Shown in pieces: positions 21,909-55,651 of a DNA stretch of 64,000 nt. Under the pieces are notes generated by a model. The model was not told the origin of the DNA and made no database searches. It was given only the letters and a program-made list of their open reading frames with translations. The DNA comes from Nitrospinaceae bacterium (GTDB lineage: Bacteria; Nitrospinota; Nitrospinia; Nitrospinales; Nitrospinaceae): positions 2,432,001 to 2,496,000 of the forward strand of contig OZ245011.1 in NCBI GenBank assembly GCA_965223665.1. Reading direction: 5' to 3'. The position numbers and the translations under genes are program-made. The stretch's first letter is position 1. Each line of letters begins with the position of its first letter.

Positions 21909-24641
21909 ATGATTGACCTTTACCTTAGTAACCGCAATCAGGCTAAGGATTATCATTCAGCCCTTTCCTCTGAAATCCTTCAAACGGTTCAACCTGAAAC
22001 TTTACCTAAATTCGATTTAGATAAAGGCCAATCTTATTATCTAGAATTTAAAAACCGAATCCTGAAGATAATTGACAGGGAAACTACCGATCTTCAAAAA
22101 GAACTCTCCCATTCTGAAAATAGCCACCTTCTTTTATTAAAGAGAACCTATCTGGTAGATGCAATTATTCAAGTTAGTTTTAAATCTGCTCTACACTTGT
22201 TAAATCAAACTACTGGTGAAAACCACTTAAAAGAAAATGATCTGCCCCTTGCCATCGTTGCACGAGGGGGTTATGGGCGAGAGGAGATGTATTTTAGATC
22301 TAATGTAGAATTTCAGTTAGTTTTTCGCGCTGACCTCAATATTGAAGAAGAAAAAATAGTCGATGAATTTACTAATTTCTTTAATTATTTGTTTAGCTAT
22401 CAGGAAATTTTTTCAACATCTATAAGCTCAGGGCCATCAGAAATTAATCCAGAAGAACAGGAAATGAATACCGCTCGGTTCGCATCATTTCATTCTTTAT
22501 TAGAACATCGATTGATTGCAGGGAACCATTTGGTCTATAACGAATTCAAGAGTTCCATTAAGACTGCGGCAATATTTCATAAGGATGAAATTCTTCGGGA
22601 ATGCTTGAAACATCGTACTTATTTTGAAATTCAAAATACAGTTTTCAAACAGGAACCCAATATTAAAGAAGAATTACTTCGAGTTTATTGGGCTGTCAGT
22701 GTGGTCAGGATTCGCGAGTCCATCGACAAAACCAATTTGTTCGAATTATTATCTGAACTTTATTCAAAAAATATCTTAAGTTCTCCAGCCTTTAAAAAAA
22801 TGCAAAGCGGTTTAAATTTCCTTTCCAGGGTCCGTCTCTTCTTGCACTGCCATCAACATGGCTCACACAGGGATGAATTAAGCTACGAAGTCAGGGATAA
22901 AATAACCGAATCGATGGGGTACAAGAAAGATGTTAATAAATTTTTCAATGAATATTTTTATCAAGCAGTTTTGCCCCTAAAACGATTAAGCCGCAATATA
23001 TTCTGGGAAAGTGTTTCGTTTCCAACTAGTCAGTCAAAAACACTTAATAAAGTCTTTTGTGTGAACTCAGAGAATCAAATTACTTTTAACGATCCTAAAA
23101 TTTCTTATTCATGGAACCCACCAACCTCGGTATTAGAATTGTTCACTCTGGTATCTCGAAAAAATTACTTTCTGGCCTTTCCCGTAATTCGGTCAATAGA
23201 ATCGAATATTGAGCAAATGTACCCCCTATTTCAGGAAACAGAAAATGCAAAAGCAATCCAGTCATACTTTCAAAATATTATAAAAGGAAAATATTTTGCG
23301 AAAGCCATTCGCTACTTACATGAATTTAATTTATTAGAAAACTTTTTTATTCCTGAGTTTAAAAATTTAACTGGTCTTCTTCAAGATATTTACGTTCACA
23401 TATTCCCTACTGATATTCATATTCTGGCTGCATTAGACGCTCTCAACAAAATTGAAACTGACTCTGAGGTAGATCCGTTTTTAAGTGAACTTTATCAATC
23501 CTTAAAAAATAAAACCATTATTAAACTCTCAGTATTATTACATGACATTGGAAAAGGATTAAAAGCTCCGGGAGAAAATGAAGAACTAATTGGTGCACGG
23601 GCTATCCCACAAATATTAAATAAGTTAGGTTATGGGAATAATAAACGTTTAGTAGAAGATGTTGCCTTTTTAGTTGAAAAGCATCTGATGATGCATGACC
23701 TGATGCTTCTCGATCCGGATGAAGATGAAACTCACAACATGATTTGGGACTTAGTTAACAAAGATGTTGAACGGTTCAAAATGTTAATTTTGTTGACCTA
23801 TGCCGATAGGGCCGGAACAAAAATGAAAATGTCCAAAACCCAAATAGATCAACTCAAATACTTTTATCAAAGTATGTTGTACCATCAAAAGCGAGTAAGT
23901 GTCCCAAATGAAGTCCAGGCAGAATTTTTTAAAATGATCCGTTTGCCAAGAGATCTTCAAGCACATCTACAAATTTATCATCAATTTAAAAATTCAAAGG
24001 ATCAATTTGCAGCAGAATTTTTTTTTAAACCCGAGCAATCTTCTGAGCTAGTGGTTTGCACTAAAGATCAACCCGGTCTTTTATATAAAATTTCTGCTAT
24101 TTTGGCCTTTAATCAACTAAGTATTTCAGAAGCAAATATCCATACTTCTAAAGACAATGTTTTTGATGTTTTTAAGGTTTGTGGCCCAACCAGAGACCCC
24201 ATCGCGTTTTCAAATTTTTCCTACTTACAGAAACAACTTAAAGAAGATTTAAAAAAGGTTTTTGTTGAAAAAACCCCCATTTCCTTATTGTATAAAGACC
24301 GCACCTTAAGCTCAAAATGGGAAGAAGAAAAATTTAAAGAAATAAAGCTTAAAATTGCCATCATTGGTAGAGCGGTAAAAATTGAAACTCATGATATTAT
24401 TGGGACCATAATGTTGGAAACCCAGGTTTTTTCTCAGCTAAATATGGAAATCCAAAGGGCTGTCATACATACCAACTATGGTTCAGCTTCTAATATTTTT
24501 TATTTAAGACCCGAGGATGTTCATACAATTATTAGAGAAGAAAATAAGTTTAAAAACATGTTAAAAAGTTCCTTACAACCTCTTATTCATAACACTCCCA
24601 TTTTTCCGAAAGAATCAACGGGAGTTACTAATACAAAATAG
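21909..24641 (+). CDS. GlnD-like protein (degenerate NTase, HD and ACT domains)
   Basis: ARGGYGREE NTase-like motif, HD motif LLHDIGKG...LTYAD, ACT-like KDQPGLL...AFNQLSISEANIHT. Confidence 0.8.
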   Translation: MIDLYLSNRNQAKDYHSALSSEILQTVQPETLPKFDLDKGQSYYLEFKNRILKIIDRETTDLQKELSHSENSHLLLLKRTYLVDAIIQVSFKSALHLLNQTTGENHLKENDLPLAIVARGGYGREEMYFRSNVEFQLVFRADLNIEEEKIVDEFTNFFNYLFSYQEIFSTSISSGPSEINPEEQEMNTARFASFHSLLEHRLIAGNHLVYNEFKSSIKTAAIFHKDEILRECLKHRTYFEIQNTVFKQEPNIKEELLRVYWAVSVVRIRESIDKTNLFELLSELYSKNILSSPAFKKMQSGLNFLSRVRLFLHCHQHGSHRDELSYEVRDKITESMGYKKDVNKFFNEYFYQAVLPLKRLSRNIFWESVSFPTSQSKTLNKVFCVNSENQITFNDPKISYSWNPPTSVLELFTLVSRKNYFLAFPVIRSIESNIEQMYPLFQETENAKAIQSYFQNIIKGKYFAKAIRYLHEFNLLENFFIPEFKNLTGLLQDIYVHIFPTDIHILAALDALNKIETDSEVDPFLSELYQSLKNKTIIKLSVLLHDIGKGLKAPGENEELIGARAIPQILNKLGYGNNKRLVEDVAFLVEKHLMMHDLMLLDPDEDETHNMIWDLVNKDVERFKMLILLTYADRAGTKMKMSKTQIDQLKYFYQSMLYHQKRVSVPNEVQAEFFKMIRLPRDLQAHLQIYHQFKNSKDQFAAEFFFKPEQSSELVVCTKDQPGLLYKISAILAFNQLSISEANIHTSKDNVFDVFKVCGPTRDPIAFSNFSYLQKQLKEDLKKVFVEKTPISLLYKDRTLSSKWEEEKFKEIKLKIAIIGRAVKIETHDIIGTIMLETQVFSQLNMEIQRAVIHTNYGSASNIFYLRPEDVHTIIREENKFKNMLKSSLQPLIHNTPIFPKESTGVTNTK

Positions 24642-24651
24642 AAAAATACTT

Positions 24652-25311
24652 ATGCAAAGATTTCCTTTATTTGTCTCAATTTTAATTTGCTTCTTAATTA
24701 TTTCTAAAACTGGGTTTTCAGAAAATAATGGGGTCTTGCAGGAAGCTTTGACATTAGATCGCCAGGGATTTATTGAGGAGTCAATCCAAGCATGGAAAAA
24801 GGTACTTGACTCTAAACCAGAAAAAAAAATACACATCTATGCTCAAATTAAATTGTGCATCGCTTATTCCAAATCTTCCATGTTTGGAGACGCTTTAAAA
24901 GAAGCAAAAAACTTAGCTGAAAAATTTCCTAATCAATTCAATGTAGCGTTTAACCTTGGAAATATGTACAGCGCAACCCACCAATATCAACAAGCAATAG
25001 AAGCTTATAAAAAAGTTGTAGAACTACAGCCTAACGAAGGATTAGGTTATGTAGGGTTGGGACTTAGTCTCTTTGGAAATCAAATTGTGGAAGAATCTTT
25101 AGAAACTTTACGTAAAGTTAGGAAGCTCTTTAAAACCCAAAAGAATATTTCCTGGTACCAAAATGTTCGAATTATGATTGGGCAAATTAAAGGATTTGCC
25201 CCCTACCCACCCGATTTTTCGAATTTATGGTTGGCCAACAATCTCCGTGAAATTAGAACCACTTACGAACAAACTATTTTTCGCAACTTTGAAAAACAAC
25301 TAAATCTCTAA
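24652..25311 (+). CDS. Secreted TPR-repeat protein
   Basis: Signal peptide; TPR pattern FNLGNMY...QQAIEAYKKVVELQPN. Confidence 0.8.
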   Translation: MQRFPLFVSILICFLIISKTGFSENNGVLQEALTLDRQGFIEESIQAWKKVLDSKPEKKIHIYAQIKLCIAYSKSSMFGDALKEAKNLAEKFPNQFNVAFNLGNMYSATHQYQQAIEAYKKVVELQPNEGLGYVGLGLSLFGNQIVEESLETLRKVRKLFKTQKNISWYQNVRIMIGQIKGFAPYPPDFSNLWLANNLREIRTTYEQTIFRNFEKQLNL

Positions 25312-25550
25312 TCCAATTTCAAATACCTTTTTCAACTTTAATTAATTTAATTGGGAATTGCCACCATTTTTAAATTTTAAAGACGCTTTTCTAATAAACT
25401 TTTTTCTTAAAAAATATTTAAAGTATCTTAAGACTCCTCAAATCAAAGCTTTTTTATTTTATTTTGTTTTAAACTATCAGGTAAGTAAAGAATCGTATCA
25501 ACACACCCGAACATCTAAATATACAGAAATCTTTGTGGAGGTTAAATAAA

Positions 25551-26360
25551 ATGAATCAAAGCTTCCTCATGTGCCCACCAAAATATTTTGGTGTTCGTTA
25601 TGTAATTAATCCCTGGATGGAAGGTCATTTAGGACAGGTAGATATTAATTTAGCCCAAAATCAATGGGAAGAGTTTTATCAATCTTTAACTCAAAAAGCT
25701 AACGTAAAATTAATAGAACCTAAAACACATGTTCCTGATATGGCATTTACTGCGAATGCCGGGTTAATAATTAAAGACCAATTTGTCCTAAGTCGTTTCA
25801 AGCACCAGGAAAGACGGCGGGAAGAATCTTATTTTGAAAACTGGTTTCAATCCAGATTCCCAAATTTAATCCATATGCCAAAAAATATCTCCTTTGAAGG
25901 AGCTGGTGACGCCCTTTGGCAACCCGGAGAAAATTTACTTTGGATGGCACATGGATTTCGCACAGATATAGAATCTCATAACTTCATATCAAACCAATTC
26001 AACATTAAAATTATTTCTCTAAAATTGATCAACCCTTCCTACTATCACTTAGACACCTGTTTTTGCCCCCTTTTGGACCAACAAATAATGTATTACCCGG
26101 CAGCCTTCGATACAGATTCCCTTAAGTTAATTGAGGGTTATTTCCCTATCGAAAATAGGATTGTTGTTTCCCCCAAAGATGCAGTAAATTTTGCTTGTAA
26201 CGCCGTTTTGGTGGGCAGAGAATTATATCTTAATTTTGCTACCCAAGAATTACAAATGGATCTGAAGTCCAGGGGCTATATCCCAATTGTTCAACCGGTT
26301 GATGAGTTCTTGAAAGCTGGCGGTGGTAACAAATGCCTTACTTTAGGCCTTAATGACTAA
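25551..26360 (+). CDS. Amidinotransferase/pentein-family hydrolase, ArgZ (arginine dihydrolase) N-domain-like
   Basis: GGAGG RBS and ATG at 25551; LMCPP, VINPWM, PDMAFTANAG, FEGAGD, YHLDTCFCP and GGGNKCLTL motifs. Confidence 0.85.
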   Translation: MNQSFLMCPPKYFGVRYVINPWMEGHLGQVDINLAQNQWEEFYQSLTQKANVKLIEPKTHVPDMAFTANAGLIIKDQFVLSRFKHQERRREESYFENWFQSRFPNLIHMPKNISFEGAGDALWQPGENLLWMAHGFRTDIESHNFISNQFNIKIISLKLINPSYYHLDTCFCPLLDQQIMYYPAAFDTDSLKLIEGYFPIENRIVVSPKDAVNFACNAVLVGRELYLNFATQELQMDLKSRGYIPIVQPVDEFLKAGGGNKCLTLGLND

Positions 26361-26468
26361 TCATTTACATTTTGTTAAATTAATTAATATTCCTTATACT
26401 TCCATTTTCGTTTCAATGTTGTAGAATGTAGGTTTTTCCAAACTTTACCCTTTTTGAGTATTAGGTTG

Positions 26469-27383
26469 ATGAAAAAGGACTTTCTAACATTAATGGATTT
26501 TTCAACAGACGAATTGAGCCAAATAATTGGTCTGGCTGAAAACATAAAAAAGTCTCCCCAAGATTACGCTTCTGTTCTTCGTGGAAAATCTTTGGGGATG
26601 ATTTTTGCTAAAAAATCAACTCGTACTCGTATTTCTTTTGAGGTTGGCATTCACCAATTAGGTGGGCAAGCCATTTTTTTAGGCCCTGACGACTTACAGC
26701 TTTCCCGTGGAGAGTCAATTGAAGACACAGCAAAAGTTTTGTCCCGATATTTGCATGGGATAATGATTCGTACTTATTCCCATCAAAATGTTTTGGATTT
26801 AGCAAAATATGCCTCAATTCCTGTGATCAATGGCTTAACCGATTACAATCATCCTTGCCAAGCTCTATCGGATCTCTTCACAATAAAAGAAAAACTGGGT
26901 AATTTAGAGGGTCTGAAATTGGCTTATTTAGGAGATGGAAACAATGTAGCCGTTTCATTATTATTTGCGTGCATCAAGTTTGGGTTAGACGTTTCAATAA
27001 TTAGCCCAAAAGGTTACACCATTAATAAAGAGGTAATCAGTCTGATTACTAATACAGACCATAAGAAAAAATCGAATGTGCTCATTACTGATAACATTGC
27101 CGAAGGGATAAAAAATGCCCATATTGTCTATACTGATGTTTGGGCAAGCATGGGTCAAGAGGAAGAACACTCCAAACGGGTAAAAGATTTGGCTAAATAT
27201 TCTGTAACCGATGATATTATGAAGCAGGCTGATTCAGAAGCTATTTTTATGCATTGTTTGCCAGCCCATCGAGGAGAAGAAGTCAGCGCATCTGTGATTG
27301 ACGGAAAATCTTCCATTGTTTTTGATCAGGCAGAAAACCGACTGCATCTTCAAAAAAGTATTATGGCAACTTTAATAAATTAA
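26469..27383 (+). CDS. argF: Ornithine carbamoyltransferase
   Basis: STRTRISF, HPCQ, DVWASMG, HCLP and QAENR motifs. Confidence 0.96.
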   Translation: MKKDFLTLMDFSTDELSQIIGLAENIKKSPQDYASVLRGKSLGMIFAKKSTRTRISFEVGIHQLGGQAIFLGPDDLQLSRGESIEDTAKVLSRYLHGIMIRTYSHQNVLDLAKYASIPVINGLTDYNHPCQALSDLFTIKEKLGNLEGLKLAYLGDGNNVAVSLLFACIKFGLDVSIISPKGYTINKEVISLITNTDHKKKSNVLITDNIAEGIKNAHIVYTDVWASMGQEEEHSKRVKDLAKYSVTDDIMKQADSEAIFMHCLPAHRGEEVSASVIDGKSSIVFDQAENRLHLQKSIMATLIN

Positions 27384-27510
27384 TAAGAATTTGATTAACT
27401 TAACTCTTATTAGATAGGGATTGATTTTAAAGGCTCGACTTAATTGCAGAATTCAAATTTTTGAGGCTGGATTTAGTTGAGAATATTTTAATATACATAT
27501 AGGAGAAATA

Positions 27511-28116
27511 ATGAGCTTAGTAGATCCTTCCAATTTGGTGTGGATGGACTTAGAAATGACCGGTCTTAACCCGGAAATCGAAGTTATAATTGAAATTGCA
27601 ACCATTGTTACTGATAAAGAATTAAATATTCTGGAAGAAGGACCCACTTTAGTAATTCATCAAAAAAATGAAATTTTAGACCGTATGGACGAGTGGAATC
27701 AAAAAACTCATACGGCATCTGGTCTAGTAGATAGAGTTAGACAATCGAAGATCACCGCTGCACAAGCGGAAACCATGACTTTAGATTTTATAAAAAAATA
27801 TGTTCCTCACAATACTTCTCCACTTTGCGGAAATTCTGTAGGTCAAGACCGAAAATTTTTGGATAAGTATATGAAAGAAATTTCAGATTTTTTACATTAC
27901 CGAAATGTTGATGTGACTTCTATTAAAGAACTGATTAAAAGATGGTATCCAAATGGCCCTAAGCCTCCTAAAAAAAGTGATGCCCATTTGGCACTTATCG
28001 ATATAAGAGAATCCATTGAAGAATTAGTTTTTTATAGACAACATTATTTTCATAATGGTATGGCAATGGTCGGTAAAGATGAAACTCTAGAAAAACAGGG
28101 AACAGAAGATGAGTAA
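27511..28116 (+). CDS. orn: Oligoribonuclease
   Basis: LVWMDLEMTGL, PLCGNSVGQDRKFL, HYRNVDVTSIKEL and HLALIDIRESI motifs. Confidence 0.95.
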   Translation: MSLVDPSNLVWMDLEMTGLNPEIEVIIEIATIVTDKELNILEEGPTLVIHQKNEILDRMDEWNQKTHTASGLVDRVRQSKITAAQAETMTLDFIKKYVPHNTSPLCGNSVGQDRKFLDKYMKEISDFLHYRNVDVTSIKELIKRWYPNGPKPPKKSDAHLALIDIRESIEELVFYRQHYFHNGMAMVGKDETLEKQGTEDE

Positions 28117-31990: not shown

Positions 31991-34900
31991 ATGCTGACCA
32001 TGAAAACTAATCCTATTTTTCGCGTCTTATTATTTTTTTCAATTTCACTCACCATATGGGTTGGCATTGCGGAATCTCAGCAAGCAAGCTACAGTTTATT
32101 AAAACAACAAGGAGAAAGTTATTTTAAACAGGGATCCTTTTCTAAAGCTCATAAAGTTTATAAAAAAGCTTTAGAATTTGACCTCAATGAGACTGACAAA
32201 CGTTGGACTGAGTTTAGATTAGCAGATACTTTGTGGCGATCAGAAGCTTCTAGTAAAAAATTCGATACCTCAATTTTAGATCAGGCTAGGGATCAACTTA
32301 ATAAGATGGTTCGTGATGTTCGTCGAATGGAAGATAAAGACCGCATCTGGGCAGAAATTCAGGAATCTTTGGGTGACTATTGGTGGATGCGGTCACAGAC
32401 TAGAAATTGGGGCTCAGCCTGGCAACATTATCAAAAAGCATTAGACTGGTGGGCAGGGGCAAAAGATTTAGAACTTGCCAGAAAAAGATATTTAAATATT
32501 ATTTGGAACGTCACGGCGCCTCCCTGGAGACCTTCTTATTACTCATATGGTTACTATGGGAATTATGTGCCTGTTAAGATTTTAGAAAATGTTCTCAAAA
32601 TTTCTCAGTCTCCAGAAGATCAAGCGCGAGCTAACTATTTTCTCGCCATGGGGTTGCGCAACCAGGGAAACCTGTATCAACAACAGCGTATTCCTGATCT
32701 ATTTGAAAAAGCAATTCAATTGGGAAAATCGACCGAATGGTATGATGACTCTCTTTACCATTATGCAGAGTGGCTATCTGGTTCTGGAGAAGTCATTATC
32801 CTTGCCAATGGCCAACAGCAAAGAAAACCCAATTATAATAAAGGCCTTGAATATTACCGACGTCTGACAAATGAATTTAATAAAGGGGAAACTCGATTTT
32901 ATGATGATGCTCAACGTCAAATCGAGAATATTACCAAACCCACTTTATCCATAAACGTTGATAAAATTTTCTTACCTGGTTCTCAAATTAAATATCAATT
33001 AAATTGGAGAAACATTAAACAAGTGACATTGTCTCTTTATCCGATTGACCTCACTAAGGATGTCAAGTTGTCAAAGGATATAAATGTCAATCAATGGAAG
33101 AATCAAATCAACTTATTGCTTAAAGAAAAAAGAACAAGCTGGACTCATGACACAAAAGATAAAAGAGACTATATCCCCGGAAGAGAAACACTCTCTTTGG
33201 AAGAAAAATTACCAGTCGGTGCTTATATCCTTAAAGCAAGTGGTGAAAATGTAAATGCGCGAGAAGTTATCTTGGTGACTGACTCCGCAGTGGTTTTAAA
33301 AAATTCTAATAATCAAGCCTTAGTGTATTTTTGTGATTCTGCTAATGGGGCACCCATTGAAAATGCGAAAGTACAACTGCAACAACGTTTCTATACTGGC
33401 CATCGCTGGGTTTGGCGCGCTGCCACCGCTAAAACCAACAAAGAAGGGTTCGCCAAATTCTATTTAAAAAATACAAGACACAATTCGCAAATCTATGTCG
33501 CAGCCGCTTTTGAAAATCGGCAAGCTTTTGTAACAAGTTATAACCACCGGGGTTATTCAGACAAAGAATCTTGGAAAATGTACGTAACTACGGACCGACC
33601 GGCCTATCGACCCAATGAAAAAGCCAATTGGAAACTCACCGCAAGAACCTATGATGGGTCTAAATATTCCACTCCCTCAAACGCTTACGTTGAATATCAA
33701 ATATCCGATCCCCGCGGAGTTAAATTAAAAGAGGGTACCTTAAAGTTAAATGAATATGGAAGTGCGTGGGAGTCATTACAATTATCTGAATCGATTCCTC
33801 TTGGTACCTACACCATAGTTTTTTGGACCAAAAATAAAAAAAAACATATTGGCAGCGCAAATTTATTCCGCCTAGAAGAATATAAACTTCCAGAGTTCAA
33901 AGTTAGCGTGAAAGTTCCTGAAGAAAATGGGAAGAAAAAAACTTTTCAATTAGGAGACACTTTAGAGGCGGATATTCATGCGGAATATTATTTTGGTGGA
34001 CCAGTTGCAAATGCATCTGTTGAAATTATTGTATATCAAAAATCTTTTCAACCCTTTTGGCGACCTGCCGCAGAATACCCCTGGTATTACGAAGATTTAT
34101 ATTCTAATCCTCATCACTACTGGGGACACGGTCAACAAGTCAAACGCGAAGTGTTAAAAACTGATAGCCGGGGGAATGCTCACCTAACTATTCCAACACA
34201 GCTCGGAAATCAGGATCTTGAGTATCGTATTGAAGCACGAGTGACCGATTCTTCGCGAAGGGAAATTATTTCGTCAGAGTCCGTCCGGGTTTCACGCCAG
34301 GCATATTTTGTTTATATGAACCCCAAACATTATTTGTATAAGCCGCAAGACAAAGTAGACATAAAAATAAATTCCATGGACCCAAATAATCAACCCATAT
34401 CAGCCGATGGAACCGTCAAAGTGACCCGAGACTTTTGGTTTGAGATTTGGATCAATCCAGACGGCCAGGAAATTCAGGGTGAAGAATTAAAACGTTTAAA
34501 AGAAAAATCTGTTATTTTTCCTCCCCCTCAACCTCCAGAGGGTGGGAAATGGAAGCTTAAGTTTAAAGGATACCAGCACGACGAAATTTTGACACAATCC
34601 GTTAAAACAAATAAAGAAGGACAGGCAGAATTTAATTTCACTCCTGGTAACGAAGGATACTACCGTGTTGAATGGTTTTCTCAACCTAATAAGAAAAGCC
34701 TCCCCATAAAAGCAGAAACAACCATTTGGGCTGCTACTAATGCAACTACGGATTTGGGTTATCGCCATGGAGGCTTAGAAATCATCGCCGACAAAGATAC
34801 TTTTCAAGCAGGCCAGGAAGTTCCCGTAATGCTGGTGGCTCCCACAAATGATCGTTACGTGGTATTTGGTATTGAAGGCGACGATCTTTACGACTACCAA

Positions 34901-37900
34901 TTAGTTCATATGCCTGGAACAGTTAAACTGCTCCGTTTAAAAATCCAAGAAAAGCATGTCCCCAATATATTTTTAAATGCTGTAATGGTAACCGGACAAC
35001 AGATTTTTAGTGATACCGAACAAGTGATTGTTCCACCATTAAAAAACTTTCTCAATGTTTCGGTAGAAAGTAATCAGGACCAATACCAACCTCAGGAAAA
35101 AGGTACACTGACTATCACCACGCGAAATCATGAAAATAAACCTGTACAATCCGAAGTTTCTTTAGCTCTCGTGGATGAGGCCGTATTTTATATACAAAAA
35201 GATTTAGCACCTGATCCCCGTCAATTCTTTTTTGGAAACAAACGTAGACACCAAACGAAAACCGCAAGTTCTTTTCAAATGAAACGTTACTTACGGCAGG
35301 ACCCAAAACCCAGTCCACCCTCTAAAGATTATCCCGAATCCATTAAAGCAGATGGAGGAGCGTTTAATGAAAATAAAAGGATTGTCGGCAAAAAAGAGTC
35401 TTCTCTTCGAAGTCGATCTATGATGGCAAAATCGAATGCTCCCATGGAATCTTTTGCATCCATGGAATTAGATGATGCCGCAGCGTTGGAAGAAGCTCCA
35501 GGCAGACAATCAGGAGCCGGAAGTGACGAGGCGAATGTTCAAGTTAGAAGCGATTTTCGATCGACTATCATATGGGAACCTAATATCAAAACGGGTAAAG
35601 ATGGGAAAGCAACAGTAGAAGTAAAATTTCCCGATAGCCTTACCCAGTGGCGTGCTACTGCCCGGTCGGTGACAAAAAAGAATCAATTTGGAATTCAAAC
35701 TGCAAAAATGCAGACTCAAATGCCACTAATGATTCGTTTACAGGCTCCTCGGTTTTTTGTTGTGGGAGATGAAGTCACCCTCTCAGCCCTTATCAATAAT
35801 AATACCAATGAAAACTTAAAAATAAATCCTGTTATTGAGACGACAGGCTTAAAAGTAGATTCCAAATCAGATGAAATTTCCATTGCTCCTAACAGCGAAA
35901 AACGAGTGGACTGGTTGGCTACGATACTTCAACCCGGAAATGTAAAAATAAAGGTTACCGCAAGAAACAATAAATTCGCAGATTCAATGGAAAAAGAGTT
36001 TATCGCTCATGAACATGGTATCGAAAAACTGATTGCTAAATCTGGAAAGCTTAAGGGCCAATCTGTGAATATTTCACTTGACCTTCCTCAAGCTCGCAAA
36101 AAGAATTCGACAAAAATGACGGTACAAGTGGCTCCCAGCTTAGCAGTAACCATGCTAGACGCGTTACCTTATCTCATAGATTATCCCTACGGCTGCACGG
36201 AACAAACATTAAGCCGATTTCTTCCCACAGTAATTACATTAAAAACTTTAAGGGATTTAGGGCTGAAACCAGAAGATGTCGCCAATCGATTGTTTGGTGG
36301 AATTGATCCAAAATTAGCAAACAAATCACATCCCAATGGGAAGAAAAATTTAAATAAGATTACTGCAATGGTTGAGAAAGGACTGGACCGCCTTTATGAC
36401 TTTCAACATAGTGACGGAGGATGGGGATGGTGGAAAAAAGGAGATAGCGATCCCTTCATGACCGCCTATGTATTATGGGGGCTAACCTTGGCACAAAATG
36501 CTCAAGTAGAAATTGATCCAAGCGTATTAAGTGAAGCTTTTAAGTTTTTAGATAAAGAGTTGGTGGAAGCGGAAAATCAGTATGACCAACAAGCCTGGCT
36601 TCTCCATGCTTTAGCTTATTACCATAAAACTAAAAACTTTAAAAAGTTTTCCAAATTTCAATCCAAGGCATTTAATAATCTTTGGAAAAATCGAACCAAA
36701 CTAAATTCTTATTCCCGAGCCCTCTTTACATTGAGCGCGCATTACTTTGGAATGAAAACACATGCTAAAACCTTAGCCGAGAACCTGGAAAATGGTGTTA
36801 TCCTTGACAATTCTCCAGACACTTCAATTGTGCAAAGAGGATCAAAAACATCTGAAAGGTACACCATGGCCACGGCCCATTGGGGAGAAGACGGACTTTA
36901 TTATAAGTGGTCGGATGGAGGTGTGGAGGCCACTTCTATGGCTCTAAGGGCACTTTTAGCAGTATCTCCAGAAAACACTTTGATCGGTCCGGTCACCAAT
37001 TGGCTAATCAAAAATCGACGCGGCTCCCACTGGTCCAATACCAGGGATACCGCTATTTCTCTACTGGCACTAAATGATTATCTTCATATCAGTGGAGAGC
37101 TAAACGTCGATCAAGGATATAAATTAATCGTAAATGGAAACCTTCTCGAAGAAATTAAAATAAAAGATGTACTAAATGCCCCAAGTAATTACCTTGTGCC
37201 AAATAGATACATTGTCGATGGAGTGAATGAAATTCAATTAATTCGCACCTCTGGAAAAGGCCCTCTATACTTTTCAGTCCAGTCCCAATTCTTCAGCCTG
37301 GAAGAACCAATTACTCCCGCTGGAAATGAATTGTTTGTCCGAAGGCAATATCAAAAGCAAGTTGGCCGCCCCACTTTATTAAAGGGTTACGTTTACGATT
37401 CCGTACCATTAAACGATGGAGATACCATCAATAGTGGAGAAAGAATTGAAACGGTAATTACCATTGAATCGAAAAATAATTATGAATACCTAATTTTTGA
37501 AGATTTAAAACCGGCAGGATTTGAAGCAGTACAAATCAAAAGTGGCACTCCATTTTACACAAAGGAATTAAAGTCGGCAGCCGTGAAACTGAAATTAGAT
37601 AATACAAAAAGTATTAACAACATGAATCGGGGGAAAAATTCAATGCGAAGCAAATTGGCCAAGGAAGCATTTAGTCCTCCTAGAAGACACCCTTCGTTTG
37701 GGAACGATTATACTGGGCGTAGCCGGTGGGTTCATCAGGAACTGAGGGATCGAAAAGTGGTCTTCTTTATCGATAAATTACCGCAAGGATTTTGGGAAAT
37801 ACGGTACACGTTACGCGCTGAAGTTCCTGGTCAATTTCATGCATTGCCTGTAATGGCACATGCCATGTATATCCCGGAAATTCGCACCAACGGCTCCGAA

Positions 37901-37930
37901 ATCCGCGTGACTGTTATTGATAGGAATTAA
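31991..37930 (+). CDS. Bacterial alpha-2-macroglobulin with helical/TPR-like N-terminal extension
   Basis: TDRPAYRP, FPDSLTQWR, thioester YPYGCTEQ (36194-36205) and QHSDGGWGWW; signal peptide; 1979 aa. Confidence 0.93.
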   Translation: MLTMKTNPIFRVLLFFSISLTIWVGIAESQQASYSLLKQQGESYFKQGSFSKAHKVYKKALEFDLNETDKRWTEFRLADTLWRSEASSKKFDTSILDQARDQLNKMVRDVRRMEDKDRIWAEIQESLGDYWWMRSQTRNWGSAWQHYQKALDWWAGAKDLELARKRYLNIIWNVTAPPWRPSYYSYGYYGNYVPVKILENVLKISQSPEDQARANYFLAMGLRNQGNLYQQQRIPDLFEKAIQLGKSTEWYDDSLYHYAEWLSGSGEVIILANGQQQRKPNYNKGLEYYRRLTNEFNKGETRFYDDAQRQIENITKPTLSINVDKIFLPGSQIKYQLNWRNIKQVTLSLYPIDLTKDVKLSKDINVNQWKNQINLLLKEKRTSWTHDTKDKRDYIPGRETLSLEEKLPVGAYILKASGENVNAREVILVTDSAVVLKNSNNQALVYFCDSANGAPIENAKVQLQQRFYTGHRWVWRAATAKTNKEGFAKFYLKNTRHNSQIYVAAAFENRQAFVTSYNHRGYSDKESWKMYVTTDRPAYRPNEKANWKLTARTYDGSKYSTPSNAYVEYQISDPRGVKLKEGTLKLNEYGSAWESLQLSESIPLGTYTIVFWTKNKKKHIGSANLFRLEEYKLPEFKVSVKVPEENGKKKTFQLGDTLEADIHAEYYFGGPVANASVEIIVYQKSFQPFWRPAAEYPWYYEDLYSNPHHYWGHGQQVKREVLKTDSRGNAHLTIPTQLGNQDLEYRIEARVTDSSRREIISSESVRVSRQAYFVYMNPKHYLYKPQDKVDIKINSMDPNNQPISADGTVKVTRDFWFEIWINPDGQEIQGEELKRLKEKSVIFPPPQPPEGGKWKLKFKGYQHDEILTQSVKTNKEGQAEFNFTPGNEGYYRVEWFSQPNKKSLPIKAETTIWAATNATTDLGYRHGGLEIIADKDTFQAGQEVPVMLVAPTNDRYVVFGIEGDDLYDYQLVHMPGTVKLLRLKIQEKHVPNIFLNAVMVTGQQIFSDTEQVIVPPLKNFLNVSVESNQDQYQPQEKGTLTITTRNHENKPVQSEVSLALVDEAVFYIQKDLAPDPRQFFFGNKRRHQTKTASSFQMKRYLRQDPKPSPPSKDYPESIKADGGAFNENKRIVGKKESSLRSRSMMAKSNAPMESFASMELDDAAALEEAPGRQSGAGSDEANVQVRSDFRSTIIWEPNIKTGKDGKATVEVKFPDSLTQWRATARSVTKKNQFGIQTAKMQTQMPLMIRLQAPRFFVVGDEVTLSALINNNTNENLKINPVIETTGLKVDSKSDEISIAPNSEKRVDWLATILQPGNVKIKVTARNNKFADSMEKEFIAHEHGIEKLIAKSGKLKGQSVNISLDLPQARKKNSTKMTVQVAPSLAVTMLDALPYLIDYPYGCTEQTLSRFLPTVITLKTLRDLGLKPEDVANRLFGGIDPKLANKSHPNGKKNLNKITAMVEKGLDRLYDFQHSDGGWGWWKKGDSDPFMTAYVLWGLTLAQNAQVEIDPSVLSEAFKFLDKELVEAENQYDQQAWLLHALAYYHKTKNFKKFSKFQSKAFNNLWKNRTKLNSYSRALFTLSAHYFGMKTHAKTLAENLENGVILDNSPDTSIVQRGSKTSERYTMATAHWGEDGLYYKWSDGGVEATSMALRALLAVSPENTLIGPVTNWLIKNRRGSHWSNTRDTAISLLALNDYLHISGELNVDQGYKLIVNGNLLEEIKIKDVLNAPSNYLVPNRYIVDGVNEIQLIRTSGKGPLYFSVQSQFFSLEEPITPAGNELFVRRQYQKQVGRPTLLKGYVYDSVPLNDGDTINSGERIETVITIESKNNYEYLIFEDLKPAGFEAVQIKSGTPFYTKELKSAAVKLKLDNTKSINNMNRGKNSMRSKLAKEAFSPPRRHPSFGNDYTGRSRWVHQELRDRKVVFFIDKLPQGFWEIRYTLRAEVPGQFHALPVMAHAMYIPEIRTNGSEIRVTVIDRN

Positions 37931-51577: not shown

Positions 51578-54500
51578 ATGAATCCACCTGAAGATAAAAA
51601 CCTCGAAACCCCAGAGTCACCTTCTGAAGATCCGCCTCCAAAAAAACTAACTCCAAAGAAAAAACCCAGACCTAAAAGATCCATTATAGGATGGGTCCTT
51701 CGCTGGGGATTCTACAGTCTTCTCTTAGTGATTTTGCTTCTTATTGGAATAGCTTGGGGACTTAAATACTTCCCTTGGAATCAATACCGAGCCACTATTG
51801 AAAGTACGCTAACTGAAAAGCTAAATGTTCCCGTTAAAGTAGGTGGAATTCTAATTGATTTGCCAGAAGGAATTCACTTACAAAATGTTAGTTTTGGGGA
51901 CCGTCCCATTCTCTTTTCAGTTAATGAACTAATATTAGACTACGATTTAAAGGAATTATTTAAGGGTAAGTTAATCATTGACCATATCAAGATTGATTCC
52001 CCTCAAGTCAATTTAGTCTCCGAAAATGGCAATTGGAATTTTCAACCCATACTCGATGCCTTGGAAACCTCAAATGAACCAGATGAAACGGAACCTGCTT
52101 CGGGCCCCATTTCAAATGAACCATCGTTAATTCCCTTTAGATTAGACCTACAAAAATTAGAAATAAATAATATCCGCGCATCCACAAAAATTGATGACAA
52201 GTTAGAAGCAATTATTTCAGGTATCAGTTTATTAGCAGAAGGGCAATTTAACCCTGAAAATATTAATGCCAAAATTAATTTCCTTTGGCAACCCTCAACA
52301 AATACTCAACAATCTTATAATCTTTTTTATAGAACCACTGACCCAAAAGAAGTTTACCTCCGAACGCTCATTACCACCGATTTAAATTTAACCGCCCACG
52401 GAATTCAAGAAGGAAGCCTTTCGGGAGTATTTTCCTTGAATAATAATTTTTTTAAATTAGGGCAAGTTTTTCCTTCTCCACAAATTGCAGGAAAACTGGA
52501 AACATCCTTAAATCTTAAGAACGAAACGTTTCAACTCGCTGATTTAATATTAAATATTGGGAAAGAAAATTCCATTAAAGCTTCTGGATCGGCGGAAAAT
52601 ATATTAGAGGACCCAAAGTTCACGATAAATTTAATCCGCACTCGATTTAATCTTGAAGAACTAGTGACCCTCGCTAAAGATTTTCTCCCCCCTCTTAAAG
52701 CCCAAGGAACTTTAGAGATAAATGATTTAGAAGCCAACGGACGATTGAAAAATAATCAAATCGAAAGATTAAGGCTTCCCCAAGGAGAAATTATTATCAA
52801 TAAAGTATTCGCCGAATATCCAGAATTGAATGCCAACATAAAAAATCTATCTTCGAAAATAAAACTCAACAACCTAATTTTAAAGGAGCTACAACCCAAA
52901 GAAGTGGATGCCATAGTTGATATCTTTCTAGATGAAGGCCAATTAGGTTCTGAATATCGAGTCCACGGATTGAATCAAAATCTCATTCTACACGCCGAAG
53001 GAGCGAAATTATCTGAAGGAAATATTAAATTCCACACACAATTACAACAATCCTATGTAGATTTTCCGGAAATTGGAATTATTCAAACTCCCCTAAAACT
53101 TGACGGAGAAATAAGTGGAAATTTGCAATCTGGAGACCTCCCCAAAATAAATATTGATTTAGCACTGGATGAATCCTTGAAATACACAGTGAATGCTTCC
53201 TTAAAAAATTTCGGCAAAAATGGATTTACTATAAACAATTTCCTCAAATTAAATTTCAATCAAATTGCACATATGGTCCCTGAAAAAGTTTTTAAATCAG
53301 TCGGCATTCAAATGCTTTCGGGGACCTCATCCATTCAAACAGTAGCAAAAGGAATTTTCAATGAAAACTTTTTCCCCTCCAAAGCAAACACCCAAAACAT
53401 AATAAAGCTCGAAAATATTGAGACGAAATTACTTAACCCAAATTTAAAAGCAAAGGGTTTGAATTTTTATTTGTCACTCCCTGCAATTATTAAGCATAAA
53501 AAAGGAATAAAAATTCCTGAATTAGATATTAAGGGAAATTGGAAACAAATGGAAGCACTGGATAATTGGATTTTAGGCTCAATGCAATTGGCCACCCATT
53601 TAAAAACAGACCAATTTATTTCTTATGAGGGTAAGTTCTCACCTATCAATATCCAACACCAACTCATGGCACAAATTGATAATATTAGCAGCATTGAACC
53701 CCAAGCGAATATCTCGGATTTCAATATTGATTTATCTACCGAATCAAAAGTAATTTCCCAAAAGGAATTTAGAGATATTAATTTAAAAGGAAAAATTTCT
53801 GCAAGTAAGACTCAAACTCTCAAAAAAGTTAAAACAGGCTCTCTTGAAACTAATTTTGATGTCAAGGCTACTGATCAAAATTTTACAAAAAGCCATGCAA
53901 AAACTTTTATTTCTATTCTTTCTCCAGAACTAAAACAAAAAGATTTTAATTTTAAACTTGACCGAATTAACTTACAAACTCAATCTCAACAGAATCTAAA
54001 AACGGGTGAAGTGCGGGCAAGTTTAATAAATTTGGACATGCTGGATCTATTACATTTAGAAGCCAAGGGACATATTAAAAAATGGGGGGACTGGTTTGCC
54101 ATAAACAGCACCCTTTCCAATACCAATATTAAAAACCTATATTCTCTTATACCTTCTCAATTTAAAGAGGGCCTCGAGGGACTGAATGTTACAGGTACCT
54201 TAGGGATAACATTAATTGGGGAAGGGAGGCGGCCCAATGAAGCAGAAATCAAAAGTTTAAATTTTCCTCTAATGCTGGAAACGAAAGCTAACCTTAATGA
54301 CTTAAGGATCGAATGGCCAGAACAAGGATTAAAAGTGGATAGTTTTAATGCTTCAACTCATTTAAGAAGTAAAAATAATCAAACCCAATTAAAGGGAAAT
54401 ATAGATTTTGGAAAAGTTTTTAAAGATGGGCTCCCGGATAATCGTCCATTGGAGCCTAACTTTAAATTCGATTATTTATTAGATAAATGGGATCGTTTGG

Positions 54501-55651
54501 AAATTCGAGAGACGCAATTGAACATGGACAGCAAGGAATTAGACTTAAAACTTAATGGGCAAATTGAGGGTTTAGGTAATTTTGTAAGAGGAAAACTTGC
54601 TCCAAGTTTTCCAGAAATAATTAAAGCAGTTGATTTTGCCTTACAGGGAACAACCTCAGTAAATGCCGAAACTCTGTCTCCATGGCTTTCTGGTTTTAAG
54701 GGCAAAGGGCAGTTGAATTCAAAATTCAACACCAATCTCATTGCAGGAAAAAATATTCAATTAAATGGCCAAATAGATTTTAACCATTTAACCGCAAGCT
54801 ATAAAAAGAGCACGAGTATCGAGGAACTTCACGGCAAGTTTTTTCTAAGCAAAAATCTTTTTTTAGATAAATCTTTATTGAGAATCCCTTCTAAATCATT
54901 TTCTGTTTCACAAAAAGGATTTTTTCGGCAATTACGCGATTTTTCAAATTTTAAAAATATTGTCAAAATCAAATCAATAAAAATAGGAAACCACAAAATT
55001 TCAGATATTAAATTAGATCTATTTTATAAAGACAATCGTTTTTTTATTGAAAATTTCTTAATGAAAGCTTTAGGAGCTTCCATAGGAGGCAACCTTTTTT
55101 TAACTCAAACAAAAGAAGGTCCGGAATTAAGTTTTTCCAGCGAATTTGCCGGAATCGATTTCAACTCTCTTTCGAAAAAATCCGAATTCAAAAAATCAAA
55201 AGATTCTAAAATGGATGGCAATCTGCATCTCGATTTTAAAATTGGCCAAGCAGATTCTAAAAATCGTGTAAACTTGGACCAATTATCCTCCAAAATAAAT
55301 ATCACAAGAATTGGCAGAGAGGTCCTTGACCGGGTACTTATATTTATTGACCCAGAAGAAAGCAAACCTGCAATTGTCGACACCAGGTCTAAGCTAAAAT
55401 TGGCTTCTCCTAAAAAAGTCAGTATAGAGTTAGAAAATGGAAATATAAGTGTTGCTGTCTGGTTGTATAATAAATTGCTAGGGGGAATTATTAAAGCTCC
55501 AGAGTTAAAACGGGTCCCAATTACACGTTTGAAACCCTTTAGAGACTTTGCAGAAAATCTCCAGGCATTAAAAAAATTTCAATCAGCATTACAATACTTG
55601 AGTGCCAAAGGAATATCATTTGACGAACAGGGAAATATTGCAGTGTATTAA
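51578..55651 (+). CDS. AsmA/YdbH-like membrane-anchored beta-taco lipid-bridge protein
   Basis: N-terminal TM, AsmA-like N-domain (..PQVNL..NGNWNF), long beta-rich body, 1357 aa. Confidence 0.7.
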   Translation: MNPPEDKNLETPESPSEDPPPKKLTPKKKPRPKRSIIGWVLRWGFYSLLLVILLLIGIAWGLKYFPWNQYRATIESTLTEKLNVPVKVGGILIDLPEGIHLQNVSFGDRPILFSVNELILDYDLKELFKGKLIIDHIKIDSPQVNLVSENGNWNFQPILDALETSNEPDETEPASGPISNEPSLIPFRLDLQKLEINNIRASTKIDDKLEAIISGISLLAEGQFNPENINAKINFLWQPSTNTQQSYNLFYRTTDPKEVYLRTLITTDLNLTAHGIQEGSLSGVFSLNNNFFKLGQVFPSPQIAGKLETSLNLKNETFQLADLILNIGKENSIKASGSAENILEDPKFTINLIRTRFNLEELVTLAKDFLPPLKAQGTLEINDLEANGRLKNNQIERLRLPQGEIIINKVFAEYPELNANIKNLSSKIKLNNLILKELQPKEVDAIVDIFLDEGQLGSEYRVHGLNQNLILHAEGAKLSEGNIKFHTQLQQSYVDFPEIGIIQTPLKLDGEISGNLQSGDLPKINIDLALDESLKYTVNASLKNFGKNGFTINNFLKLNFNQIAHMVPEKVFKSVGIQMLSGTSSIQTVAKGIFNENFFPSKANTQNIIKLENIETKLLNPNLKAKGLNFYLSLPAIIKHKKGIKIPELDIKGNWKQMEALDNWILGSMQLATHLKTDQFISYEGKFSPINIQHQLMAQIDNISSIEPQANISDFNIDLSTESKVISQKEFRDINLKGKISASKTQTLKKVKTGSLETNFDVKATDQNFTKSHAKTFISILSPELKQKDFNFKLDRINLQTQSQQNLKTGEVRASLINLDMLDLLHLEAKGHIKKWGDWFAINSTLSNTNIKNLYSLIPSQFKEGLEGLNVTGTLGITLIGEGRRPNEAEIKSLNFPLMLETKANLNDLRIEWPEQGLKVDSFNASTHLRSKNNQTQLKGNIDFGKVFKDGLPDNRPLEPNFKFDYLLDKWDRLEIRETQLNMDSKELDLKLNGQIEGLGNFVRGKLAPSFPEIIKAVDFALQGTTSVNAETLSPWLSGFKGKGQLNSKFNTNLIAGKNIQLNGQIDFNHLTASYKKSTSIEELHGKFFLSKNLFLDKSLLRIPSKSFSVSQKGFFRQLRDFSNFKNIVKIKSIKIGNHKISDIKLDLFYKDNRFFIENFLMKALGASIGGNLFLTQTKEGPELSFSSEFAGIDFNSLSKKSEFKKSKDSKMDGNLHLDFKIGQADSKNRVNLDQLSSKINITRIGREVLDRVLIFIDPEESKPAIVDTRSKLKLASPKKVSIELENGNISVAVWLYNKLLGGIIKAPELKRVPITRLKPFRDFAENLQALKKFQSALQYLSAKGISFDEQGNIAVY

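Follow-up and report, generated by a model that had tools for sequence, protein, structure and literature searches.

A 64,000-nucleotide stretch of the genome of a Nitrospinaceae bacterium (contig OZ245011.1, positions 2,432,001 to 2,496,000; hereafter the window) contains a gene whose product is, as judged from its sequence and predicted model, most likely a free-standing arginine dihydrolase of the pentein (guanidino-modifying) fold. The gene (25551..26360, forward strand) was recognized from its open reading frame (ORF) and translation, which comprises 269 residues followed by a stop codon, as a stand-alone homologue of the N-terminal domain of ArgZ/AgrE and is referred to here as ArgZ-like. 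We infer the substrate, product and physiological role of the protein from homology, fold, residues, gene content and synteny.

The reading frame runs uninterrupted to the stop codon at 26358–26360, with possible start codons at TTG 25533 and ATG 25551. The start was assigned to ATG 25551 because a GGAGG ribosome-binding site, read from the sequence (25537..25541, forward strand), lies 9 nt before it and because homology to ArgZ/AgrE begins at residue 4–5. The public gene call (P0002) comprises 247 residues and begins 22 codons later, omitting window positions 25551–25616 and thereby removing the conserved N-terminal FLMCPP...VINPWM stretch. The translation contains VINPWM, FTANAG, FEGAGD, YHLD and KCLTL, all the motifs listed in the initial annotation of this DNA; the key residues are N20, D63, N69, R88, E116, H166, D168 and C262.

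Comparison with solved structures matched the protein to AgrE (PDB entry 6lrf; E = 3.6e-79) and ArgZ (6juy; E = 3e-77) over residues 4–267, whereas the best solved DDAH (dimethylarginine dimethylaminohydrolase) was matched with an E value of 0.0012. The sequence is 45–49% identical to the ArgZ/AgrE N-domain across the whole domain and 44.2–49.4% identical to the proteins encoded at the 80 ArgZ-family loci taken from other phyla. The AlphaFold model has a predicted local distance difference test (pLDDT) score of 97.5 and resembles the ArgZ N-domain structures (6jv0, 6jv1 and 6juz) closely, with a template-modelling (TM) score of 0.97–0.98 and a root-mean-square deviation (r.m.s.d.) of 0.9 Å. 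In the fold search, DDAHs were found at a TM score of 0.79–0.85, an r.m.s.d. of 2.5–3.5 Å and 14–18% identity, and amidinotransferases, AstB and NnhA at a TM score of 0.72–0.82 and 11–16% identity.

The residues expected at an ArgZ active site are retained. Cys262 aligns with the residue replaced by Ala in 6lrh and Asn69 with that replaced by Ser in 6juz; the titles of the PDB entries name the mutants as C264A (6lrh), C264S (6jv1) and N71S (6juz), the last being ArgZ(N71S) with a covalent reaction intermediate. The catalytic His and Glu of ArgZ, which we take to be H168 and E118, correspond to H166 and E116 here, and His, Glu and Asn presumably act here as they do in ArgZ. N69, E116, H166, D168 and C262 are invariant in an alignment of 28 diverse family members, so Asn69 marks the whole family and no subgroup of it. 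ArgZ converts arginine to ornithine, CO2 and two NH3 through an enzyme-bound ureido intermediate that is attacked a second time; EC 3.5.3.27 is presumably the number of this ArgZ/AgrE-type activity. In the Nitrospinota protein, Cys262 would attack the guanidino carbon of L-arginine, aided by His166 and Glu116, with loss of one ammonia. The enzyme-bound ureido intermediate would then be attacked again, with the participation of Asn69, instead of being released as citrulline, and the net products would be L-ornithine, CO2 and two NH3.

Homologues are numerous and mostly short. An exhaustive search returned 3247 clusters (50% identity) at E ≤ 0.001 and 587 at E ≤ 1e-30, and among the best 150 clusters most proteins have 255–300 residues and a few about 700. 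Reference genomes of other phyla were searched for loci with an eight-sequence alignment as the query and the best 80 loci were taken. Fused proteins of 693–724 residues, mostly from cyanobacteria with some from Verrucomicrobiota, account for 60 of these and stand-alone proteins of 270–291 residues for 17, while three are cut or of unclear architecture. The hosts of the stand-alone forms are Acidobacteriaceae, Burkholderiales, Xanthomonas, Pseudoxanthomonas, Methylocystis, Methylocella, an Eremiobacterota metagenome-assembled genome (MAG) and one Cyanobium. On these sequence data, the single-domain form is the commonest state of the family and the cyanobacterial fusion a special case; the stand-alone form, pointed out in the initial annotation, is thus the usual architecture. 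At three proteobacterial stand-alone loci (L054:3001-4827, L096:3215-4798 and L104:3236-4807) the frame is open for a further ∼250–340 codons upstream with no Pfam domain, which probably reflects high G+C content and not a fusion.

A tree of 94 rows was calculated with a quick IQ-TREE run, with support from the Shimodaira–Hasegawa-like approximate likelihood-ratio test (SH-aLRT); it includes 14 Nitrospinota rows, 48 representatives and 13 fused rows. The 14 Nitrospinota rows form one clade (SH-aLRT 82) within a 58-row group (SH-aLRT 90), in which all 17 named stand-alone rows and all 13 fused rows are also found. A nested clade of 12 comprises 11 fused rows and the stand-alone Cyanobium protein, and the remaining two fused rows lie elsewhere in the 58-row group. 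Nine of the 48 representatives score best on the Mycobacterium tuberculosis (Mtb)-type model and fall outside that group. At 8.4 and 10 changes per column, the branches to the outgroup are very long, and the root was therefore not relied on. The Cyanobium locus (MAG, L091:3977-5267) has an ArgZ gene that is apparently split into a 284-residue N-domain ORF and a 132-residue ORF with a match to PF21570, the C-terminal Rossmann domain of ArgZ-like proteins; in a sister Cyanobium the 712-residue form is intact.

Within the phylum, the nearest named relatives belong to Nitrospinota and Nitrospinaceae MAGs (58–62% identity). Matches at E ≤ 1e-10 were found in 53 of 120 phylum genomes: 46 strong (E ≤ 3.7e-55), one partial at a contig end, one fragment with stop codons and five weak matches to a DDAH-type paralogue. 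The gene is present in 18 of 20 other genomes of f1, the family to which the window belongs. Its surroundings were compared in 30 Nitrospinota loci with 1.5 kb flanks from families f1, f2 and f4, across which a block of a glnD-like gene, a TPR gene, the ArgZ-like gene and orn recurs (glnD-like synteny in 28 of 30 loci, TPR upstream in 29 and orn downstream in 27). In the window, the glnD-like gene (21909..24641, forward strand) encodes a 910-residue PII uridylyltransferase-like protein with Pfam GlnD_UR_UTase, HD and ACT domains, although it scores 205 bits on TIGR01693, under the cut-off of 519. The gene for a TPR-repeat protein with matches to Pfam TPR families and a signal-like N-terminus (24652..25311, forward strand) begins 10 nt after it, and orn, encoding oligoribonuclease (27511..28116, forward strand; NF003765, 272.5 bits, cut-off 106), closes the block.

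The gene that follows the ArgZ-like gene on the same strand is argF, encoding ornithine carbamoyltransferase (OTC), the only one in the genome (26454 or 26469..27383, forward strand; TIGR00658, 407.8 bits, cut-off 280.85). Of its two possible starts, TTG 26454 and ATG 26469, the ATG is the more likely; the spacing of 108 bp given in the initial annotation is borne out for the ATG and becomes 93 nt for the TTG. argF lies between the ArgZ-like gene and orn at 14 of the 30 loci, all in f1 and from four genera. The same-strand adjacency is present in 14 of 14 complete f1 loci, at protein identities of 50–62%, and the 15th f1 locus ends right after the gene. At 15 of the 30 loci (f2 and f4) there is no argF beside the ArgZ-like gene. 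In family f4 argF is elsewhere in 31 of 31 genomes (on the same contig ∼690 kb away in G043 and ∼2 Mb away in G077) and, as read from the printed sequences, directly follows a gene with an argD-like C-terminus in most of 20 loci. Among the 80 loci from other phyla, none has argF within 4 kb. The linkage is a derived, family-level feature because the adjacency occurs in f1 only, the f4 argF follows an argD-like gene and the arrangement is found at none of the 80 loci elsewhere. The conservation of the argF linkage, on which the initial annotation had staked its proposal, was therefore largely not found. The place of argF at f2 and f4 loci holds a secreted protein of ∼170–190 residues or nothing. 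This protein (L023, L026–L031, L041 and L042) has a hydrophobic N-terminus and repeats such as DPETVQLIQQLQNDP...QEILQD that, in sequence, resemble STI1/Hop DP domains.

Each of the two genes is preceded by its own conserved element. The sequence CATCTAAATATA (25512..25523, forward strand) carries the motif CATCT[AT]A, which lies 35–52 nt before the start codon of the ArgZ-like gene at 22 of the 30 Nitrospinota loci, in families f1, f2 and f4, and is probably part of the promoter of that gene. In the spacer before argF, the −10-like motif TGTAGAAT (26420..26427, forward strand) conforms to TGTA[N]AAT, which lies 22–42 nt before argF in 14 of 14 f1 loci with argF after the ArgZ-like gene and is absent in 20 of 20 f4 loci; it is probably argF's own promoter. 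With a conserved motif upstream of each, the two genes are probably transcribed from separate promoters. A generic scan for promoters and terminators performed at chance level (26 promoter-like sites compared with 22.3 expected and five terminator-like sites compared with 5.2) and placed no terminator-like site in the spacer.

Flanking genes of the stand-alone forms in other phyla point towards ornithine in a minority of cases. Of the 17 stand-alone loci, for which 38 flanking ORFs were surveyed, three (L068, L081 and L101) have a class-III aminotransferase gene directly upstream on the same strand and one (L097, Methylocystis) has an ornithine cyclodeaminase/mu-crystallin gene in that position. 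An ornithine-using enzyme thus adjoins four of the 17 loci, and argF likewise encodes an enzyme that uses ornithine. A second DDAH-type pentein gene lies beside one locus (L088), and a fragment of the ArgZ C-terminal domain follows another (L091, Cyanobium); the flanks of the remaining 11 loci were uninformative.

The rest of the genome, which is 98.6% complete, was searched by family for arginine and ornithine genes. argG, argH and carB, the partner genes considered in the initial annotation, are all present (of carAB, the search covered carB), as are speA, lysA and argD. The other carbamoyltransferase match scores 154.6 bits, under the TIGR00658 cut-off. An ornithine aminotransferase gene separate from argD (G000:C1:402739-403923, reverse strand, L124) scores 529.5 bits on TIGR01885 (cut-off 378.4). 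Carbamate kinase, which the initial annotation did not see nearby, is missing from the 49 window ORFs scanned; a gene for it (G000:C1:4037674-4038636, reverse strand, L131:6674-7636; NF009007, 334 bits, cut-off 266) lies ∼1.58 Mb from the window gene, among crcB, DUF190, a gene for an unknown 441-residue protein and a divergent gene for NADP-glutamate dehydrogenase (gdhA), with no arginine genes near. A second pentein of canonical DDAH type (G000:C1:3440547-3441395, reverse strand, L002:1483-2244) scores 184.6 bits on NF045660 and 179.5 bits on NF045658, both under the cut-offs, and carries FIEDNA at the site of FTANAG in the ArgZ-like protein; other genomes of the phylum also give weak matches to this paralogue. 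The only PF00491 (arginase/agmatinase) protein in the genome is encoded by hutG beside hutU, arcA is missing from both genomes of the genus (best match 25.2 bits, cut-off 489.1), and neither kind of ornithine cyclodeaminase was found in the genome. The C-terminal domains of ArgZ are indeed absent, as first noted: the ORF ends at 269 residues and TIGR00300 (nickel-pincer) has zero matches in the genome. The best cyanophycin synthetase match reaches 114 bits against a cut-off of 850. The ornithine aminotransferase gene has as its neighbour a divergent gene whose product belongs to the chlorite dismutase family (PF06778, 198 bits) and has an N-terminal PCP_red domain.

Because the genome lacks arginase, arginine deiminase and both ornithine cyclodeaminases, the ArgZ-like enzyme is the likely entry to arginine breakdown and nitrogen remobilization. 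The ornithine formed could be converted by the RocD-type ornithine aminotransferase to glutamate semialdehyde and on to proline or glutamate, or be returned to arginine through the neighbouring argF with argG and argH, which would amount to an ornithine–ammonia cycle. The gene set for such a cycle is present by content (the dihydrolase candidate, argF, argG, argH and carB). Ornithine aminotransferase is over its cut-off in 46 of the 120 phylum genomes; counting 47 genomes with an ArgZ-like gene, 30 have both, 17 the ArgZ-like gene only, 16 the aminotransferase only and 57 neither, an association among related genomes and no strict rule.

Several observations weigh against an arginine dihydrolase. 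The protein scores 332.7 bits on the NCBIfam model Arg_dihydro (NF052232) and does not reach its cut-off of 450; its second-best NCBIfam equivalog bears the name dimethylargininase; and Pfam places it under DDAH_eukar alone (46 bits, gathering score 23). No enzyme assay of any stand-alone family member was found in the literature, 13 of the 17 stand-alone loci have no neighbour that informs on function, the co-occurrence with ornithine aminotransferase is loose, with near-complete genomes in both discordant groups, and the tree was taken without Rv2323c. The failed NF052232 cut-off is not decisive because it also excludes a bona fide fused ArgZ: the 710-residue P0126 passes bifunc_ArgZ (NF052231; 1152.7 bits, cut-off 1025) yet scores 425.7 on NF052232. 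Four other Nitrospinota ArgZ-like proteins score 327.6–366.1 bits on NF052232, and the window protein itself scores 328.9 on NF052231, under the cut-off. The canonical DDAH models are far from reached (NF045658, 29.9 bits against 450; NF045660, 43.6 against 340). Taken with the E values, the fold and the tree, the NCBIfam scores place the protein with the ArgZ/AgrE N-domain, as first proposed, and away from canonical DDAH or arginine deiminase.

A citrulline-forming hydrolase would be the closest enzymatic alternative, either a DDAH with methylarginines as substrates or an enzyme resembling arginine deiminase; in the latter case argF would have a catabolic role and ATP would come from the distant carbamate kinase. 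Beyond the Pfam hit, the protein matches the Mtb-type dimethylargininase model NF045659 over its full length (238.6 bits, cut-off 300; residues 3–266 against 24–282 of 283), relatives carry public names such as 'arginine deiminase-related protein' and 'DDAH family protein', argF adjoins and a carbamate kinase over its cut-off exists in the genome. Solved DDAHs are nevertheless matched at 0.0012 or worse and at low identity, N69 retains the Asn that is mutated in the trapped covalent intermediate of 6juz, and the genome has a separate gene of canonical DDAH type. The arginine deiminase pathway set is incomplete, with no arcA, a single OTC that must serve biosynthesis and a carbamate kinase gene unlinked to arginine genes, and the name 'DDAH' of Rv2323c rests on homology alone in the available text of its description (PMC4569260). 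A citrulline-forming or methylarginine-specific activity is accordingly the weaker reading compared with arginine dihydrolase, and we consider it quite unlikely. Less likely still, and in our view very unlikely, is a same-fold hydrolase or amidinotransferase whose substrate is a different guanidino compound, for example agmatine, homoarginine or a guanidino acid. The fold is common to amidinotransferases, AstB and NnhA, and no stand-alone member has a measured substrate; those enzymes, however, are found only at low TM scores and identities, all the residues invariant across the ArgZ-containing family are kept, and aguAB agmatine deiminase genes are reported in cultured Nitrospinota in the part of the text available (PMC10753782).

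A different question is whether the dihydrolase and argF form a dedicated ornithine–ammonia cycle module, a unit that would cycle ornithine and thereby buffer or store nitrogen or supply partners with ammonia. We regard this as doubtful. All of argF, argG, argH and carB are present and argF is the sole OTC gene; the adjacency has been kept on one strand in every complete f1 locus, in four genera at 50–62% protein identity, where argF has left the argD-linked position known from f4; the spacer is free of terminator-like sites; and a gene for a GlnD-like nitrogen regulator lies two genes upstream. Set against this are the 15 of 30 Nitrospinota loci at which the remainder of the block is retained without argF and the absence of the adjacency at all 80 loci elsewhere, the separate conserved motif upstream of each gene, the lack of a match to cyanophycin synthetase above 114 bits (cut-off 850), the linear route offered by ornithine aminotransferase and the ATP cost of simultaneous arginine synthesis and breakdown. 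Even for cyanobacteria, a letter describes the cycle as a side activity of catabolism (PMC8262935). The part of the cycle proposal in the initial annotation that stands is gene content: the cycle could close because argG, argH, carB and a single argF exist, and it is possible on that sequence basis. The proposal is weakened by the unconserved linkage, the separate motifs and the simpler aminotransferase fate, and neither a conserved linkage nor a storage polymer supports it. Nitrogen storage on the cyanobacterial pattern, also suggested at first, loses its footing, since no cyanophycin synthetase was found and the reasoning about storage in cyanobacteria is not transferable to this genome. A more specific scenario, which we think unlikely, is that in one Nitrospinota family the sole argF left an argD operon and settled after the dihydrolase gene, downstream of the GlnD-like gene, perhaps creating a cycle in non-photosynthetic, cyanophycin-free chemolithoautotrophs that would buffer nitrogen pulses or release ammonia to ammonia oxidizers nearby.

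Among known systems, the candidate dihydrolase is closest to ArgZ (Sll1336) of Synechocystis and AgrE (Alr4995) of Anabaena, which it resembles in fold (TM score 0.97–0.98), in sequence (45–49% identity) and in the positions of Cys, Asn, His, Glu and Asp. These enzymes carry C-terminal nickel-pincer ornithine cyclodeaminase domains that the Nitrospinota protein and genome lack, and their hosts are phototrophs, whereas the Nitrospinota host is no phototroph and its genome gave no cyanophycin synthetase. Stand-alone homologues elsewhere (CBU_0279 of Coxiella burnetii and those of Acidobacteriaceae, Burkholderiales, Xanthomonas and Methylocystis) are single-domain proteins of 266–291 residues, as here; they share the 58-row group with the Nitrospinota proteins, which form a clade of their own (SH-aLRT 82), and their neighbours are an aminotransferase or ornithine cyclodeaminase at four of 17 loci, whereas that of the Nitrospinota f1 gene is argF. 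CBU_0279 itself was outside the sequence set analysed and is compared by its published description, the available text of which (PMC13252051, a 2026 preprint) presents an ArgZ N-domain homologue working with a separate ornithine cyclodeaminase. A complete 'ornithine–ammonia cycle' module is reported in the available part of an actinobacterial genome paper (PMC12275160).

M. tuberculosis Rv2323c is, by name, the namesake of NF045659, on which the Nitrospinota protein scores lower than on the ArgZ model (238.6 versus 332.7 bits) although the match is full length; the top scorers on this Rv2323c-type model lie outside the 58-row group that holds the Nitrospinota proteins. A search from the top Mtb-type scorer (P0254) returned Planctomycetes-type and unnamed proteins and no mycobacterial protein. 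In the available text on Rv2323c, growth of the knockout on arginine is poor and no proline is formed from this amino acid, and the authors state that the DDAH annotation is based on homology (PMC4569260). The name 'dimethylargininase' of NF045659 thus rests on homology, whereas the knockout phenotype in that text concerns arginine use (PMC4569260). Canonical DDAHs (Pseudomonas aeruginosa and human DDAH-1) have the pentein fold and Cys-based catalysis in common with the Nitrospinota protein (TM score 0.79–0.85) but differ in sequence (14–18% identity, E of 0.0012 or worse), and the DDAH-type paralogue in the same genome has FIEDNA for FTANAG.

The genes surrounding the locus include purC and purB on the opposite strand. 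An Rfam search over 24600–27600 at E ≤ 1 gave no match. Two very long ORFs in the window, at 31991–37930 (1979 residues) and 51578–55651 (1357 residues), have no NCBIfam match at E ≤ 1e-10.

We found no paper tying Nitrospinota to arginine dihydrolase or to a dihydrolase–ornithine route in the texts accessible to the search, which did not extend to supplements, and no paper pairing '3.5.3.27' with 'arginine dihydrolase'. The protein adds a member with the commonest architecture to a known enzyme family and by itself reveals no new mechanism. Its assignment would correct the annotation of the family in Nitrospinota, where the public names are 'hypothetical', 'arginine deiminase-related' and 'DDAH family' and the public start is 22 codons late, and it suggests that arginine breakdown in Nitrospinota may proceed by a dihydrolase in place of arginase.

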